A program made the position numbers and the translations under genes. Positions 1-6,224 of a stretch of 6,224 nt of DNA are shown piece after piece (position 1 is the stretch's first letter; each line of letters starts with the position of its first letter). The notes beneath the pieces were generated by a model. That model was not told the origin of the DNA. It worked only from the letters and a program-made list of their open reading frames with translations, and did not search any database. The DNA comes from a virus. Lineage: Duplodnaviria; Heunggongvirae; Uroviricota; Caudoviricetes. The DNA lies in IMG/VR virus record IMGVR_UViG_2778261252_000002; one strand, 5' to 3'.

Positions 1-402
1 ATGCTGAACGTGTCGCTGGCGCTGATGCTGGCACTGTCCCTGATTTACCCGCAGAGCGTGGCCGTCAGTTTTGTCGCTGCCTGGGCGATTCTGGCGACGG
101 TTATCTGTGTGGTTGCCGGTGGTGTCGGCGTTTATGCCACTGAGTATGTGCTGGAACGCTACGGGCGGGAGCTGCCGCCGGAGTCGCTGGCCGTGAAGAT
201 TGTCATGTCGCTGTTTTTGCAGCCAGTGCCGTGGTGCAGACGGGCGGCGGCTCTGGTGGTGATGGTGGCGACATTTATCTCGCTGGTCGCTGCCGGGTGG
301 ATTTTTACCGCGCTGATTTATCTCGTGGCGTCGGTGTTCTTCCGGCTGATACGTACGGCCTGCCGTCAACGTCTTGAGGGGCGGGAACCATGTCAAAGCT
401 GA
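1..402 (+). CDS. lysA: LysA-like multi-pass membrane protein (lysis timing / holin-associated); true start may lie upstream of the window
   Basis: Open frame from nt 1 to TGA at 400-402. The translation is dominated by hydrophobic stretches consistent with about 4 TM helices. It sits immediately upstream of, and overlaps by 13 nt, an Rz-like gene, as in the P2 lysA-lysB-lysC arrangement. Confidence 0.6.
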   Translation: MLNVSLALMLALSLIYPQSVAVSFVAAWAILATVICVVAGGVGVYATEYVLERYGRELPPESLAVKIVMSLFLQPVPWCRRAAALVVMVATFISLVAAGWIFTALIYLVASVFFRLIRTACRQRLEGREPCQS

Positions 403-815
403 TGATTGTGATGGTTGTGTTGTTATCGCTGGCGGTGGCGGGGCTGTTTCTGGCGAAGCATGAAAACGCCAGCCTGCGCGCCTCGCTGGACAGGGTGAAC
501 AACGTCGCCAGTGAACAGCAGACGACCATCACCATGCTGAAAAATCAGCTTCATGTTGCCCTCACCAGGGCAGACAAAAACGAGCTGGCGCAGGTGGCAC
601 TGCGTCAGGAACTGGAGAACGCCGCGAAGCGTGAAGCACAGCGCGAGAAAACCATCACGAGGTTACTTAATGAAAACGAAGATTTTCGCCGCTGGTACGG
701 CGCTGACCTGCCTGATGCTGTGCGCCGGTTGCACCAGCGCCCCGCCTGCACCGACGCCAGTGATTGTCCACAACGCCTGCCCGAAAGTGAGCCTTTGCCC
801 GATGCCGGGCAGTGA
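390..815 (+). CDS. lysB: Rz-like inner-membrane spanin (i-spanin), P2 LysB homolog
   Basis: 141-aa ORF with an N-terminal TM anchor ([19 protein letters not shown]), a charged Q/E/R/K/A-rich coiled-coil-like periplasmic region and a C-terminal [15 protein letters not shown] motif typical of Rz proteins. A GAGGGGCGGG Shine-Dalgarno-like stretch lies upstream of the ATG at 390. A lipoprotein gene is embedded in the +1 frame. Confidence 0.7.
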
Positions 816-1212
816 CCCGCAGACGAACGGTGATTTAAGTGCCGATAACCGTACCTGCTCTGATGATCCGCTGTTCATCTTTGAAAACTACACCCGCACC
901 GCGCAGGTGCTGGCCGACACGATGGCTGAGGCGCACATGTGGGCGGTGGACAAGCCCATCACCGCAACGCTGATTCGCGACATCGTTGACGGCATCAATG
1001 CCAAATTCCGTGAGCTGAAAACAAACGGCTATATCGTGGATGCGACCTGCTGGTTCAGCGAAGAATCCAACGATGCGGAAACCCTCAAGGCCGGAAAACT
1101 GTATATCGACTACGACTATACACCGGTGCCTCCTCTCGAAAACCTGACCCTGCGCCAGCGTATTACCGATAAATACCTGGCAAATCTGGTCACCTCGGTT
1201 AACAGCAATTAA
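670..1212 (+). CDS. Chimeric ORF: N-terminal ~60 aa of an Rz1-like outer-membrane lipoprotein spanin (LysC) fused in frame to a tail sheath (FI) C-terminal domain
   Basis: ATG at 670 is preceded by GAGG (659-662) and lies inside lysB in another frame. The N-terminus is [21 protein letters not shown], a signal peptide with a lipobox-like Cys, followed by a proline-rich segment ([11 protein letters not shown]...CPMPGSDPQ) characteristic of Rz1/LysC. From about codon 63 onward the sequence ([18 protein letters not shown]...[36 protein letters not shown]) is globular and unlike an o-spanin. It ends 12 nt before the tube gene with AAGGAG overlapping its stop, which is the position of the sheath gene 3' end. 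Confidence 0.55.
856..1212 (+). pseudogene. FI: 3' fragment of contractile tail sheath gene (FI), C-terminal domain only; 5' boundary approximate (+/- ~15 nt)
   Basis: This is the only sheath-like coding sequence in the window, about 120 codons where a functional sheath needs about 390. It lies immediately upstream of FII with the typical short intergenic spacer. No start codon or RBS of its own; it is read in frame with the lysC 5' portion. Confidence 0.5.
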
Positions 1213-1216
1213 GGAG
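1211..1216 (+). promoter_or_regulatory. Shine-Dalgarno sequence (AAGGAG) for FII
   Basis: AAGGAG lies 8 nt upstream of the ATG at 1225 and overlaps the stop codon of the preceding ORF. Confidence 0.6.
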
Positions 1217-1224
1217 CCTGACCG

Positions 1225-1743
1225 ATGGCAATGCCGCGCAAACTCAAGTTAATGAACGTCTTTCTGAACGGCTACAGCTATCAGGGCGTTGCAAAGTCCG
1301 TCACGCTGCCAAAACTGACCCGTAAGCTCGAAAACTATCGCGGTGCGGGGATGAACGGCAGCGCACCGGTAGACCTCGGCCTTGATGACGATGCGCTGTC
1401 AATGGAGTGGTCGCTCGGTGGTTTCCCGGATTCGGTTATCTGGGAGCTTTACGCAGCAACCGGTGTGGATGCCGTGCCGATTCGTTTTGCAGGCTCTTAC
1501 CAGCGCGACGATACCGGCGAAACGGTGGCCGTCGAGGTAGTCATGCGTGGACGTCAGAAAGAAATCGACACCGGAGAGGGTAAACAGGGAGAAGACACCG
1601 AGTCGAAAATCTCCGTGGTCTGCACCTATTTCCGGCTGACGATGGACGGTAAGGAGCTGGTCGAAATCGACACCATCAACATGATTGAGAAGGTGAACGG
1701 CGTCGACCGGCTGGAGCAACACCGCCGCAATATCGGCCTGTGA
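1225..1743 (+). CDS. FII: Contractile tail tube protein (P2 gpFII homolog)
   Basis: 172-aa ORF with a strong RBS. It sits directly upstream of the E/E'-T-U-D cluster. The length matches the P2 tube protein as I recall it, and the N-terminus MAMPRKLKLMNVFLNGYSYQGVAKSVTLPKLTRKLENYRGAGMNG looks tube-like. Confidence 0.85.
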   Translation: MAMPRKLKLMNVFLNGYSYQGVAKSVTLPKLTRKLENYRGAGMNGSAPVDLGLDDDALSMEWSLGGFPDSVIWELYAATGVDAVPIRFAGSYQRDDTGETVAVEVVMRGRQKEIDTGEGKQGEDTESKISVVCTYFRLTMDGKELVEIDTINMIEKVNGVDRLEQHRRNIGL

Positions 1744-1750
1744 TTTTCAT

Positions 1751-1771
1751 CCGGTCAGCCAGGCTGACCGG
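1751..1771 (+). repeat. Perfect 10-bp inverted repeat (CCGGTCAGCC A GGCTGACCGG) in the FII-E intergenic region; potential RNA hairpin or partial terminator
   Basis: Read directly from the sequence: 1751-1760 is the exact reverse complement of 1762-1771. It lies 8 nt after the FII stop and is not followed by a U-tract. Confidence 0.5.
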
Positions 1772-1799
1772 TTAACCCTGATTCAGAAGTGAGAAAACC

Positions 1800-2075
1800 A
1801 TGAACAAAGAAAATGTGATTACCCTGGACAATCCGGTCAAGCGTGGTGAGCAGGTTATCGAACAGGTCACGCTGATGAAACCCAATGCCGGGACGCTGCG
1901 CGGTGTCAGTCTGGCTGCGGTCGCGAACTCCGAAGTCGATGCACTGATTAAAGTGCTGCCGCGCATGACGGCACCGATGCTGACCGAACAGGAGGTCGCC
2001 GCGCTGGAACTGCCTGACCTTGTGGCGCTGGCCGGTAAGGTGGTCGGTTTTTTGTCGCCGAACTCGGTGCAGTGA
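1800..2075 (+). CDS. E: Tail assembly chaperone gpE (unshifted product)
   Basis: 91-aa ORF between the tube and tape measure genes. It contains the T_TTT_TTG slippery heptamer near its 3' end. This is the equivalent of lambda G and P2 E. Confidence 0.85.
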   Translation: MNKENVITLDNPVKRGEQVIEQVTLMKPNAGTLRGVSLAAVANSEVDALIKVLPRMTAPMLTEQEVAALELPDLVALAGKVVGFLSPNSVQ

Positions 2076-2227
2076 CGTTTCCGAAAAATCTCTCGGTCGA
2101 TGACCTGATGGCGGATGTGGCAGTGATATTTCACTGGCCGCCATCAGAACTGTATCCCATGAGCCTGACCGAACTCATCACATGGCGCGAAAAGGCGCTC
2201 CGGCGAAGCGGAAACACGAATGAGTAA
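1800..2227 (+). CDS. E': Tail assembly chaperone gpE+E', made by a programmed -1 ribosomal frameshift at 2048-2054; about 142 aa
   Basis: The -1 frame is open from 2054 to TAA at 2225-2227 and encodes VAELGAVTFPKNLSVDDLMADVAVIFHWPPSELYPMSLTELITWREKALRRSGNTNE. This frame has no start codon of its own and overlaps the T start by 8 nt. This is the architecture described for P2 E/E' and lambda G/GT. Confidence 0.75.
2048..2054 (+). promoter_or_regulatory. Slippery heptamer T_TTT_TTG (X_XXY_YYZ) for the -1 programmed frameshift
   Basis: In the E frame the codons are GGT TTT TTG (2046-2054). The six-T run followed by G is in the correct zero-frame phase for tandem tRNA slippage. Confidence 0.75.
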
Positions 2228-4667
2228 CAATGTAAAATTACAGGTATTGCTCAGGGCTGTTGACCAGGCATCCCGCCCGTTTAAATCCATCCGCACAGCG
2301 AGCAAATCGCTGTCGGGGGATATCCGGGAAACACAAAAATCACTGCGCGAGCTGAACGGTCACGCATCCCGTATTGAGGGATTCCGCAAGACCAGTGCAC
2401 AGCTCGCCGTGACTGGTCAGGAACTGAAAAAAGCCAGACAGGAAGCCGCAGCTCTGGCTGTCCAGTTTAAAAATACTGAACGACCGACAAATGCACAGGC
2501 AAAGGCAATGGAAGCCGCGCGTAAAAATGCGTCTGAGTTACAGGTGAAATATAACAGCCTGAGATTGTCGGTACAGCGCCAGCGTCAGGAATTGAGTCAG
2601 GCGGGTATTAATACCCGTAATCTGGCGCATGATGAACGAGGACTGAAAAACCGTATCAGTGAAACCACCGCACAGCTTAACCGGCAGCGTGACGCGCTGG
2701 CGCGTGTCAGTGCACAACAGGCAAAACTTAACGCAGTAAAACAGCGTTATCAGGCCGGAAAGGAACTGGCCGGAAATATGGCCTCGGTGGGCGCTGCCGG
2801 TGTGGGGATTGCGGCGGCGGGAACGATGGCCGGAGTTAAGCTGCTGATGCCCGGTTATGAGTTTGCGCAGAAAAACTCAGAATTGCAGGCCGTGCTCGGT
2901 GTGGCAAAAGACTCCACCGAAATGGCTGCACTACGCAAGCAGGCGCGTCAGCTCGGCGACAATACCGCAGCCTCGGCAGATGATGCAGCTGGTGCGCAGA
3001 TTATTATTGCGAAAGCCGGTGGGGATGTTGATGCCATTCAGGCGGCAACGCCGGTCACGCTGAATATGGCGCTGGCGAACCGTCGCACAATGGAAGAAAA
3101 CGCCGCCCTGCTGATGGGGATGAAATCCGCCTTTCAGCTTTCAAACGATAAGGTCGCTCATATCGGGGATGTTCTCTCCATGACGATGAACAAAACCGCC
3201 GCTGATTTTGACGGCATGAGCGATGCGCTGACCTATACCGCACCAGTGGCAAAAAATGCCGGTGTCAGCATTGAAGAAACCGCCGCAATGGTCGGGGCGC
3301 TGCATGATGCAAAAATCACAGGCTCAATGGCGGGGACGGGAAGCCGTGCCGTGTTAAGCCGCCTGCAGGCACCGACGGGAAAAGCATGGGATGCACTCAA
3401 AGAGCTTGGTGTGAAAACCTCAGACAGCAAGGGAAACACCCGACCAGTATTTACCATTCTGAAAGAAATGCAGGCCAGTTTTGAGAAAAACCGGCTCGGT
3501 ACTGCCCAGCAGGCTGAATACATGAAAACCATTTTCGGGGAGGAGGCCAGTTCAGCCGCCGCCGTGCTGATGACTGCCGCCTCAACCGGAAAGCTGGACA
3601 AACTGACCGCTGCGTTTAAAGCCTCAGACGGAAAGACCGCAGAGCTGGTAAATATCATGCAGGACAACCTCGGCGGTGAATTTAAGGAGTTTCAGTCCGC
3701 TTATGAGGCGGTGGGGACTGACCTGTTTGACCAGCAGGAAGGCGCACTGCGTAAGCTCACGCAGACGGCCACAAAGTATGTGTTAAAACTCGACGGCTGG
3801 ATCCAGAAAAACAAATCACTGGCGTCAACCATCGGCCTCATTGTCGGTGGCGCGCTGGCGCTTATTGGCATCATCGGTGCCATTGGTCTGGTAGCCTGGC
3901 CGGTTATCACCGGCATCAATGCCATCATCGCGGCAGCAGGCGCAATGGGGGCAATCTTCACGACGGTTGGCAGTGCTGTTATGACCGCCATCGGGGCGAT
4001 TAGCTGGCCGGTTGTGGCCGTGGTGGCCGCAATTGTCGCCGGGGCGTTGCTTATCCGTAAATACTGGGAGCCTGTCAGCGCATTCTTTGGCGGTGTGGTT
4101 GAAGGGCTGAAAGTGGCATTTGCGCCGGTGGGGGAACTGTTCACGCCACTTAAGCCGGTGTTTGACTGGCTGGGTGAAAAGTTACAGGCCGCGTGGCAGT
4201 GGTTTAAAAACCTGATTGCCCCGGTCAAAGCCACTCAGGACACCCTGAACAGTTGCCGTGACACGGGGGTCATGTTCGGGCAGGCACTGGCTGACGCGCT
4301 GATGCTGCCGCTTAATGTGTTCAACAAACTGCGCAGCGGTATTGACTGGGTACTGGAAAAACTCGGCGTCATCAACAAAGAGTCTGACGCACTTGACCAG
4401 ACTGCCGCCAGAACTCATGCCGCCACGTATGGCACAGGTGATTATATTCCGGCGACCGGCTCTTATGCGGGGTATCAGGCTTACCAGCCGGTCACGGCAC
4501 CGGCTGGCCGCTCTTATGTGGACCAGAGTAAAAACGAATATCACATCAATCTGACGGGCGGTACTGCGCCGGGGACACAGCTCGACCGCCATTTACAGGA
4601 TGCGCTCGAAAAATACGAGCGGGATAAACGTGCGCGCGCCCGTGCCAGCATGATGCATGACGGTTAA
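2220..4667 (+). CDS. T: Tail tape measure protein (P2 gpT homolog)
   Basis: 815-aa ORF. The N-terminal third is rich in Q/R/K/A/E heptad-like sequence (coiled coil), there is a central Gly/Ala/Ile-rich hydrophobic block, and it sits immediately downstream of the frameshifted chaperone. This position and composition are canonical for a tape measure protein. Confidence 0.9.
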   Translation: MSNNVKLQVLLRAVDQASRPFKSIRTASKSLSGDIRETQKSLRELNGHASRIEGFRKTSAQLAVTGQELKKARQEAAALAVQFKNTERPTNAQAKAMEAARKNASELQVKYNSLRLSVQRQRQELSQAGINTRNLAHDERGLKNRISETTAQLNRQRDALARVSAQQAKLNAVKQRYQAGKELAGNMASVGAAGVGIAAAGTMAGVKLLMPGYEFAQKNSELQAVLGVAKDSTEMAALRKQARQLGDNTAASADDAAGAQIIIAKAGGDVDAIQAATPVTLNMALANRRTMEENAALLMGMKSAFQLSNDKVAHIGDVLSMTMNKTAADFDGMSDALTYTAPVAKNAGVSIEETAAMVGALHDAKITGSMAGTGSRAVLSRLQAPTGKAWDALKELGVKTSDSKGNTRPVFTILKEMQASFEKNRLGTAQQAEYMKTIFGEEASSAAAVLMTAASTGKLDKLTAAFKASDGKTAELVNIMQDNLGGEFKEFQSAYEAVGTDLFDQQEGALRKLTQTATKYVLKLDGWIQKNKSLASTIGLIVGGALALIGIIGAIGLVAWPVITGINAIIAAAGAMGAIFTTVGSAVMTAIGAISWPVVAVVAAIVAGALLIRKYWEPVSAFFGGVVEGLKVAFAPVGELFTPLKPVFDWLGEKLQAAWQWFKNLIAPVKATQDTLNSCRDTGVMFGQALADALMLPLNVFNKLRSGIDWVLEKLGVINKESDALDQTAARTHAATYGTGDYIPATGSYAGYQAYQPVTAPAGRSYVDQSKNEYHINLTGGTAPGTQLDRHLQDALEKYERDKRARARASMMHDG

Positions 4668-4675
4668 GGAGGTGA
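4666..4675 (+). promoter_or_regulatory. Shine-Dalgarno sequence (AAGGAGGTGA) for U
   Basis: A near-consensus SD lies 8 nt upstream of the ATG at 4682 and overlaps the T stop codon. Confidence 0.6.
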
Positions 4676-4681
4676 CGAAAA

Positions 4682-5161
4682 ATGATGCTCGCGTTAGGTA
4701 TGTTTGTTTTTATGCGCCAGACGCTGCCACACCAGACCATGCAGCGTGAATCAGATTATCGCTGGCCGTCAAATTCCCGTATCGGTAAACGGGACGCCTA
4801 CCAGTTTCTCGGTGTGGGTGAGGAAAACATCACGCTTGCCGGTGTGCTTTATCCAGAACTGACCGGCGGCAAGCTGACGATGACCACGCTCAGGCTGATG
4901 GCAGAGGAAGGCCGGGCGTGGCCGTTGCTGGATGGCACCGGCATGATTTACGGCATGTATGTCATCAGCAGGGTGAGTGAAACAGGGAGTATTTTCTTTG
5001 CAGACGGCACACCCCGGAAAATTGATTTTACGTTGTCGCTCACCCGCGTTGATGAATCACTGGCCGCGCTTTATGGCGATATCGGTAAACAGGCGGAATC
5101 GCTCATCGGTAAGGCTGGCAGTATGGCGACTAAATTCACGGGTATGACGGGGGCGGGATAA
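4682..5161 (+). CDS. U: Tail protein gpU (tail tube terminator / tail completion-like)
   Basis: 159-aa ORF with a strong RBS between the tape measure and D genes. Its stop overlaps the D start as TAATG. Size and position match P2 gpU. Confidence 0.85.
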   Translation: MMLALGMFVFMRQTLPHQTMQRESDYRWPSNSRIGKRDAYQFLGVGEENITLAGVLYPELTGGKLTMTTLRLMAEEGRAWPLLDGTGMIYGMYVISRVSETGSIFFADGTPRKIDFTLSLTRVDESLAALYGDIGKQAESLIGKAGSMATKFTGMTGAG

Positions 5162-6224
5162 TGCTGGACGCGCTGACATTTGATGCAGGCAGTACGCTGA
5201 CGCCGGATTACATGCTGATGCTCGACAGCAGGGATATTACCGGCAATATCAGCGACCGTCTGATGAGCATGACCCTGACGGATAACCGGGGCTTTGAGGC
5301 TGACCAGCTTGATATTGAACTGAACGATGCCGACGGGCAGGTCGGGCTGCCGGTTCGTGGCGCTGTCCTGACGGTGTATATCGGCTGGAAAGGTTTTGCC
5401 CTGGTATGCAAAGGGAAATTTACCGTTGATGAGGTTGAACACCGGGGCGCACCGGATGTGGTCACCATCCGCGCCCGGAGTGCAGATTTCCGCGGGACGC
5501 TCAATTCCCGCCGTGAAGGCTCCTGGCATGACACCACGCTCGGTGCGATTGTTGAGGCGATAGCCTCCCGTAACAGACTGGAAGCCAGTGTCGCTCCGTC
5601 ACTGGCCGGAATTAAAATCCCGCACATCGACCAGTCGCAGGAGTCTGATGCGAAATTCCTGACCCGTCTTGCAGAACGCAACGGCGGTGAGGTGTCGGTA
5701 AAAATGGGAAAACTGCTGTTTCTCAAAGCGGGGCAGGGGGTGACTGCCAGCGGTAAAAAAATCCCGCAGATTACCATCACCCGCAGCGACGGTGACCGTC
5801 ATCATTTTGCGATTGCTGACCGTGGCGCCTATACCGGCGTAACGGCAAAGTGGTTACACACCAAAGACCCGAAGCCACAAAAGCAGAAGGTAAAACTGAA
5901 ACGCAAAAAGAAAGAGAAACACCTGCGCGCACTGGAGCACCCGAAAGCGAAACCAGTCACGCAGAAGAAAGCGCCAAAAGTACCGGAAGCACGCGAAGGT
6001 GAATACATGGCTGGTGAGGCTGACAACGTTTTTGCCCTGACCACGGTATATGCCACGAAAGCGCAGGCCATGCGCGCCGCTCAGGCGAAGTGGGATAAGC
6101 TGCAACGGGGCGTTGCGGAGTTCTCCATCAGTCTGGCTACTGGTCGGGCAGATATTTACACGGAAACGCCGGTCAAAGTGTCAGGCTTTAAGCGCGTCAT
6201 AGACGAGCAGGACTGGACAATCAC
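5161..6224 (+). CDS. D: Tail/baseplate hub protein gpD (late control gene D; gp27/VgrG-N-terminal-like), 3'-truncated by the window edge
   Basis: The frame is open from ATG 5161 to the end of the window (354 codons, no stop), which I checked by manual translation. The N-terminus is MLDALTFDAGSTLTPDYMLMLDSRDITGNISDRLMSMTLTDNRGFEADQLDIELNDADGQ. It is translationally coupled to U. It is absent from the supplied ORF track only because it has no in-window stop. Confidence 0.85.
   Translation, partial: MLDALTFDAGSTLTPDYMLMLDSRDITGNISDRLMSMTLTDNRGFEADQLDIELNDADGQVGLPVRGAVLTVYIGWKGFALVCKGKFTVDEVEHRGAPDVVTIRARSADFRGTLNSRREGSWHDTTLGAIVEAIASRNRLEASVAPSLAGIKIPHIDQSQESDAKFLTRLAERNGGEVSVKMGKLLFLKAGQGVTASGKKIPQITITRSDGDRHHFAIADRGAYTGVTAKWLHTKDPKPQKQKVKLKRKKKEKHLRALEHPKAKPVTQKKAPKVPEAREGEYMAGEADNVFALTTVYATKAQAMRAAQAKWDKLQRGVAEFSISLATGRADIYTETPVKVSGFKRVIDEQDWTI

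Follow-up and report, generated by a model that had tools for sequence, protein, structure and literature searches.

Defective P2-like prophage remnants are known in Escherichia coli, among them the ogrK–yegZ remnant of strain K-12 and the P2-related prophage of E. coli B. Hot spots of illegitimate recombination are also known, namely the deletions between short repeats in lacI and the events that give rise to lambda bio transducing phages. In both of these systems the two endpoints recur together, as a fixed pair of repeats.

We analysed a DNA stretch of 6,224 bp (hereafter the window), which is the complete draft contig NODQ01000066.1 of assembly GCA_002474525.1 and which is part of a defective P2-like (Peduovirus) prophage in an Escherichia genome. 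It resembles defective P2-like remnants of E. coli (KFu022, EH01-18-02, DC71) in having an internal deletion with short homology, in the loss of morphogenesis genes and in the intact state of the neighbouring genes, but its exact junction occurs in 0 of 5,426 complete E. coli genomes. The deletion by itself is ordinary prophage decay and, as a single locus, routine. The part that deserves attention is not the scar but its right-hand breakpoint in the tail sheath gene FI, which recurs with nucleotide precision. Like the lacI and lambda bio hot spots it is a recurrent endpoint with very short homology; unlike them it consists of one fixed bond that is combined with ~20 partner sites, often with 1–2 nt of homology. 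A literature search found no description of this FI hot spot.

Gene content of the window

The features of the window are as follows (positions are those of the window).

1–402, + strand: lysA, 133 of 141 codons, 5′ end cut at the contig start (open reading frame list, P2 alignment from nt 7533, Pfam LysA)
390–815, + strand: lysB (Rz-like i-spanin), intact, 141 aa, equal in length to P2 lysB (TIGR03495 phage_LysB, 171 bits)
670–1212, + strand: chimeric reading frame lysC′-′FI, 180 aa; signal peptide, LCAGC and Pro-rich LysC part, then the sheath C-terminal domain
670–846, + strand: lysC codons 1–59 (of 96), in the +1 frame within lysB (P2 LysC identity, NF038368)
846–851, no strand assigned: junction, with TA at 846–847 common to both parents (three-way comparison of product, lysC parent and FI parent)
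847–1212, + strand: FI codons 276–396 and stop, with a complete Phage_sheath_1C domain (megablast to FI of many phages from 846)
1225–1743, + strand: FII tail tube, intact, 172 aa (TIGR01611 tail_tube, 168 bits)
1800–2075 (E) and 2072–2227 (E′), + strand: tail assembly chaperone pair E and overlapping E′ (open reading frames, P2 annotation of the −1 frameshift)
2220–4667, + strand: T tape measure, intact, 815 aa, equal to P2
4682–5161, + strand: U tail protein, intact, 159 aa
5161–6224, + strand: D, 355 codons, 3′ end cut at the contig end (PF05954)

Apart from the chimera and the genes cut by the contig ends, all genes have the lengths of their P2 counterparts. As in P2, E′ shares its first bases with the end of E and its last ones with the start of T, and the layout for the −1 frameshift of E and E′ appears to be conserved. 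The contig starts within lysA and finishes within D. Because both ends fall inside these genes, they suggest that the source genome holds a second P2-like element with identical sequence, which would have broken the assembly at both places.

A reading frame with two parents

The chimeric frame runs from ATG 670 to TAA 1210–1212. The initial annotation, made from the letters of the sequence, had described about 60 aa of o-spanin sequence that switch near nt 845–860 into the C-terminus of a sheath protein, and this description was borne out. BLASTP aligned residues 1–59 with P2 LysC 1–59 (57/59 identical, 97 %) and residues 60–180 with P2 FI 276–396 (119/121 identical, 98 %), and the switch was placed at 846/847. 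The first part matched the Pfam family LysC (PF23793; aa 16–60, 28.7 bits, cut-off 27) and the NCBIfam model P2_Rz1 (NF038368; aa 4–62, model positions 1–59 of 85, 80.8 bits, cut-off 27). The second part matched Phage_sheath_1C (PF17482) over aa 64–166, covering model positions 1–104 of 104.

With P2 LysC, an Rz1-like o-spanin, the chimera shares the first 59 residues, the start inside lysB in a different (+1) frame and the layout of the N-terminus, with a signal peptide and a putative lipobox Cys in the motif LCAGC. It lacks LysC residues 60–96, however, and has 121 foreign residues in their place. The chimera therefore scores above the cut-off of the family model without having the full length of the family (96 aa in P2 LysC), and we do not count it as a functional LysC because the C-terminal third is missing.

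The comparison with the P2 sheath gave a similar picture. P2 FI is composed of PF04984, PF22671 and PF17482; the Pfam search of the chimera found PF17482 only, and the N-terminal 275 residues with the Phage_sheath_1 and Gp18_domIII_N parts are gone. The chimera resembles FI in its complete Phage_sheath_1C domain and in its distance to FII, which starts at 1225, 12 nt after the stop as originally noted. Since only the C-terminal domain is present, the product is not a sheath protein. No record of the exact 180-aa protein was found, because the gene caller chose the ATG at 802.

The deletion and its junction

Nucleotide alignment to P2 placed both breakpoints. Window positions 1–851 correspond to P2 nt 7533–8383 and positions 846–6224 to P2 nt 18476–23854. 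The same two segments, lysA/lysB/lysC on the left and the 3′ end of FI to D on the right, matched ~80 P2-like phages with 95–98 % identity, and in these phages they always map as two separate places. FII does not directly follow lysC in the P2 annotation, and no phage record has a contiguous lysC–FII arrangement.

The missing DNA amounts to 10,098 bp in P2 coordinates (P2 nt ~8380–18476) and to ~8.4 kb in fiAA91-ss, the closest relative on the left side; the large gap between lysC and FII that had been assumed is real, while the value of about 9 kb given for it does not hold as a fixed size. By the P2 annotation, the lost interval comprises the last 37 lysC codons with a putative attenuator, R, S, the terminator of the O operon, orf30, the activator site and transcription start of pV, V, W, J, I, H, G, fun(Z), the activator site and transcription start of pF, and FI codons 1–275. 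The contiguous lysC-R-S-V-W-J-I-H-G-FI late region of intact Peduovirus is accordingly absent from the window. All genes from R to Z/fun that the initial annotation listed as lost are indeed missing, and orf30, pV and pF are gone in addition. Its estimate that about 90 % of FI had been removed was too high, the actual loss being 69 % (275/396 codons).

In the three-way comparison, T846 and A847 were common to both parents, position 845 was specific to lysC and position 848 specific to FI. The joint lies in an imperfect TA(T/A)CCG repeat, which reads TATCCG in the lysC parents and TAACCG in FI, and the product keeps the FI version. Flanks that are collinear with one reference, a single sharp switch between them and the short homology TA at the joint identify the locus as a deletion scar. 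A single illegitimate recombination joined lysC (P2 nt 8378/8379) to FI (P2 nt 18476/18477). The lysC′-′FI frame is open because both breaks sit on codon boundaries, lysC codon 59 being joined to FI codon 276. The alignments to P2 and its ~80 relatives agree in this respect with the earlier proposal of an in-frame deletion that made a chimeric lipoprotein. Our explanation as a whole, namely that the window contains a real deletion scar of a defective prophage and that the FI end of this scar is a recurrent hot spot, has in our estimate a probability of about 0.88.

The source of the window is a short-read draft contig of just 6.2 kb with both ends inside phage genes, and the 28-mer spanning the junction was absent from three large contig collections (genome, viral and metagenome) and from the complete E. 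coli genomes. These observations would suit an assembly artefact in which lysC and FI reads of an intact prophage were misjoined. Such an artefact is nevertheless very unlikely, because the joint shares only 2 nt perfectly, far below what a de Bruijn mis-join needs. The contig was, moreover, found in two samples, and identical FI-side breakpoints are present in complete genomes (L003, L006). An independent Logan assembly also encodes the same LysC–FI junction: this second fusion (P0126) is carried by a 29-kb contig and belongs to the protein cluster of the contig's gene call. P0126 differs from the window on both sides of the joint (DPETNG, PLFLFEN). As the same joint stands there on other alleles, at least two allelic backgrounds carry the junction in nature. 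For the source assembly, the evidence for the junction consists of the contig itself and the protein of the second assembly. Contiguous flanks were absent from the phage records and from the 5,426 complete E. coli genomes. The only full-coverage match among the latter was KFu022, whose deletion is another one, between S (P2 nt 8953) and FI (P2 nt 18215).

Recurrence of the FI breakpoint

When the chimera was used as the query of a homology search, many of the matches were short E. coli proteins with an unrelated N-terminus followed by FI from codon 276. At least 20 independent deletions in E. coli P2-like prophages end at the FI bond concerned, GGGGT^AACCGT (P2 nt 18476/18477; ^ marks the bond; site sequence GGGGTAACC). 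They pair it with 17 different partners on the left and, where FI 1–275 is the part retained, with 3 on the right. Ten joints were read as DNA, and seven were seen at the protein level, their parental DNA being inferred from relatives. In all right-fixed joints the FI-derived DNA starts at AACCGTACC (P2 18477). The left partners read as DNA are listed here with the sequences in which they occur.

lysC: the window
Antisense strand of P: L003 (complete genome EH01-18-02), and three SRY genomes
I: L006 (complete chromosome)
J: L008
N: L009
FI codon 45: L010 and L011
X: L012
S: L013
Y holin: L135
FI codon 161: L136

The left partners seen at the protein level are R, L, an internal site of N, codon 13 and codon 62 of a DNA invertase, the cos-proximal region and one further sequence without an assigned parent. 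For the opposite direction we searched with FI 1–275, which ends in FRFWG, and found fusions of it with T (at residue 612), with D and with the +1 frame of ogr; the ogr fusion is a widespread 289-aa variant.

Among the fusions that keep the 3′ part of FI with at least 93 % identity, ~17 of ~30 begin at codon 276, and the others are distributed over at least eight positions. The hot-spot prophages adjoin different host genes (fieF, a peptidase-U32 gene and a PFL-like gene). Because these neighbour genes and the left partners differ, we regard the events as independent; the different left partners and chromosomal insertion sites likewise argue against common descent. The census comes mostly from the protein search, which sees open-frame fusions of up to ~315 aa and gives no absolute frequencies. 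Since the site was intact in 120 of 120 P2-like contigs of IMG/VR and a degenerate pattern for a hot-spot junction not preceded by G was absent from the three contig collections, the events are rare per prophage. In complete genomes, the left 60 nt of the FI site were too polymorphic for megablast.

The FI bond is a mutational hot spot rather than a trace of selection acting on the products, because the same bond is used by deletions that keep the C-terminal domain and by deletions that discard it. We weighed against this the idea of a domesticated fusion, in which the LysC signal exports or anchors the sheath C-domain and the product is kept because it is useful, for example by poisoning the sheath assembly of superinfecting P2-like phages. 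The preserved frame, the complete C-domain (the Pfam model begins 4 residues past the joint), the many independent fusions that keep exactly this domain and the intact tail genes downstream would all agree with it. We nevertheless consider domestication improbable, and the same low credence applies to its corollary that recurrence at codon 276 reflects selection for the complete domain. Selection is unable to pin a break to one phosphodiester bond, and it would not end deletions at this bond when FI 1–275 is retained and the C-domain lost. The partners, besides, include antisense and out-of-frame sequence (P0002 and the +1 frame of ogr), the in-frame status of the fusions is imposed by the protein search used, and a periplasmic lipoprotein cannot meet sheath subunits in the cytoplasm.

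The decay of P2-like prophages does not proceed at random here: of the fusions found that truncate the sheath, more than half go back to a single bond of its gene. Should a particular enzyme or DNA structure lie behind the hot spot, this factor would count as a new influence on how P2-like prophages become inactivated or domesticated, and the site would offer a handy natural system for illegitimate recombination in enterobacteria.

Two apparent additional cases were rejected. P0027 (Pluralibacter) has a +1 frameshift in the G run, and P0135 (ENA, 38 member sequences), which reads FRFWGNRT and then LSLIHI, is an artefact caused by read-through into the Nextera adapter CTGTCTCTTATACACATC 9 nt past the hot spot. 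The G run itself also varies. In Pluralibacter gergoviae (L137, ~8010) and in P0094, TGGGGG stands for TGGGG, and the resulting +1 frameshift splits FI into parts of 281 aa and 128 aa. This could be real slippage or a homopolymer error of long reads.

Anatomy of the hot-spot joints

The first base 3′ of the break is A in 20/20 partner sites. The base 5′ of the break is T in about half of them, and positions +3/+4 are often CC. The partners resemble weak copies of GGT^AACC, such as GAT^ATCC, GAT^AACG, GGT^ACCG and CGT^ACCC. Perfect homology at the joints is often 1–2 nt; a better repeat a few bases away went unused at the J and N joints and probably at the I joint, and P2's own I allele has only ACCTG in common. 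Neither a mobile element nor extra bases were present at the 10 joints read as DNA. In contrast, other deletions in the same remnants use microhomologies of 4–12 nt at scattered sites.

The product keeps the repeat version of the right-hand parent, which is that of FI in the right-fixed events and ATCCGT of the T gene in the T fusion. This right-hand polarity fits an event on one strand. An antisense 3′ end that copied, or ends with, the complement of AACC may have paired elsewhere; the other option is that a single strand was cleaved and ligated.

There is a second, weaker recurrent endpoint in FI, 127 nt upstream of the hot spot, with the core GGGGT^AAAC and three partners. Its sequence is GGGGT^(A/G)AACGG at P2 nt 18345–18353 (L002 11846–11854; L138 5414–5418), and the partners are two different V sites and one FI site (P0012, P0013, P0015, P0017). 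About half of the FI alleles read GGGGTAAACGG at this place, which gives a GGGGT^AA core as in the main hot spot. In P2, GGGGT(G)AAC occurs only at the main hot spot and at this second endpoint.

Possible causes of the hot spot

We hypothesize that the events start from a site-specific lesion at the FI bond, be it a nick, a break or an antisense 3′ end that became arrested or was released, and that the end so formed then joins sites with 1–6 nt of terminal homology. As sources of the lesion, a sequence-specific enzyme and template switching during replication appear about equally likely to us, and selection is unlikely.

An enzymatic origin is possible, though short of probable: a sequence-specific nuclease, nickase, HUH enzyme or recombinase would cut GGGGT^AACC, and weaker look-alikes would also be cut or joined. 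Candidates are a homing or defence endonuclease, a relaxase or Rep protein and a Y1 transposase. In 20 events the break falls at exactly the same nucleotide, and deletions in either direction use it; the partner sites resemble the hot-spot site on both sides of the break, with a tendency to G-(G/A)-T^A-(A)-C-C, and the second recurrent endpoint has the same core, GGGGT(G)AAC being restricted to these two places in P2. The retention of one parent's version throughout is what cleavage and ligation of a single strand would yield. On the other hand, our searches yielded no candidate enzyme for the site, and an identical 8-mer (GGTAACCG) at P2 18029 is used far less. Because the prophages sit at different attachment sites and carry different cargo, no common phage-borne enzyme is evident either. 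It is a tentative and rather doubtful proposition that a dedicated DNA-cleaving or strand-transfer activity acts on GGGGT^AACC, located in the conserved FRFWG^NRTCSDD region of the sheath. If true, P2-like prophages across E. coli would repeatedly lose their tails through a defence or homing nuclease or a one-strand HUH-type enzyme, and the deletion in the window would have arisen in this way.

Under template switching, the nascent antisense strand would be released after copying AACCGT and would re-prime upstream by pairing of its last bases. The release point would lie beside the GGGG run, at the foot of the inverted repeat ACGGTT(14 nt)AACCGT. Both the switching and this release point are conjectural, and we rate each as rather unlikely. 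The terminal base pair is absolute (A at +1 in 20/20 partners) while further pairing is partial, and the version kept is always the right-hand one that would already have been copied. In the predicted centroid fold, a 6-bp inverted repeat has the 5′ edge of its right arm exactly at the break, and the +1 frameshifts that other genera show in this G run suggest trouble for the polymerase. The jumps of 0.3–17 kb, however, are much longer than typical slippage, and the hairpin is weak and not significant against shuffled sequences. The left-fixed events, furthermore, use the site as a landing site, which a stall model does not predict.

Several known agents were considered and rejected. The nick of the P2 A protein at the origin (GCGCCTCG^GAGTCC) is unlike the hot-spot site. 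A role of Chi and RecBCD was dismissed, Chi (GCTGGTGG) being absent from both strands of P2 (33.6 kb) and of the window. For restriction of the BstEII type (GGTNACC), P2 has 12 sites, five of them in FI, and only the hot-spot copy is hot. The hairpin ACGGTT..AACCGT is predicted, but with a z-score of −1.8 to −1.9 it does not differ significantly from shuffles. Rpn nucleases are without sequence specificity, and quinolone-trapped gyrase prefers G after the cut, where the site has A. A DNA invertase acting on gix/hix-like sequence was set aside on inspection: the crossover predicted for it would fall 5–6 nt right of the observed break, and TAACC of FI is retained in the products.

Probable consequences for the prophage

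Because the genes for tail completion, baseplate, fibre and sheath are missing, the prophage should be unable to form tails. The spanin pair is probably inactive, as LysC has lost its last 37 residues (60–96). No terminator-like site was found between the joint and FII, and for this reason FII-E-T-U-D would most likely be transcribed only through read-through from the upstream late O operon. The locus provides an example of one deletion that makes an open frame for a chimeric lipoprotein and at the same time places the genes from the tail tube to D under another late operon.

Other deletions and cargo in related remnants

L008, which contributed the J joint, carries at 4745–4751 a further deletion between lysC and S (P2 8377–8383 joined to 9162) at a perfect 7-nt repeat with S (CATATCCGT). 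Since this deletion uses the same lysC ATATCCG as the window, the left site of the window is also reused.

P2-like remnants (L008, L009, L013, L138, L001, L139) often contain several independent internal deletions with microhomologies of 4–14 nt. Examples are deletions joining Q to Y, Q to P, lysA to S, Q to K, S to FI and FI to the end of D, and a 1.7-kb deletion internal to T. Within FI there is a perfect 12-nt direct repeat (ACGCTGATTCGC; L002 11942–11953 and 12098–12109), which matches an in-frame deletion of 52 codons (..TTLIR^DIVDG..) in three sheath variants of 344 aa (P0142–P0144).

The cargo sites of L136 (863–2089), L010 (167–1875) and L008 (1–2203) hold different genes. The cargo genes are a Shedu-type SduA_C gene, two protein kinases, and an AAA_15/ABC ATPase beside a Y1 transposase of the IS200/IS605 type.
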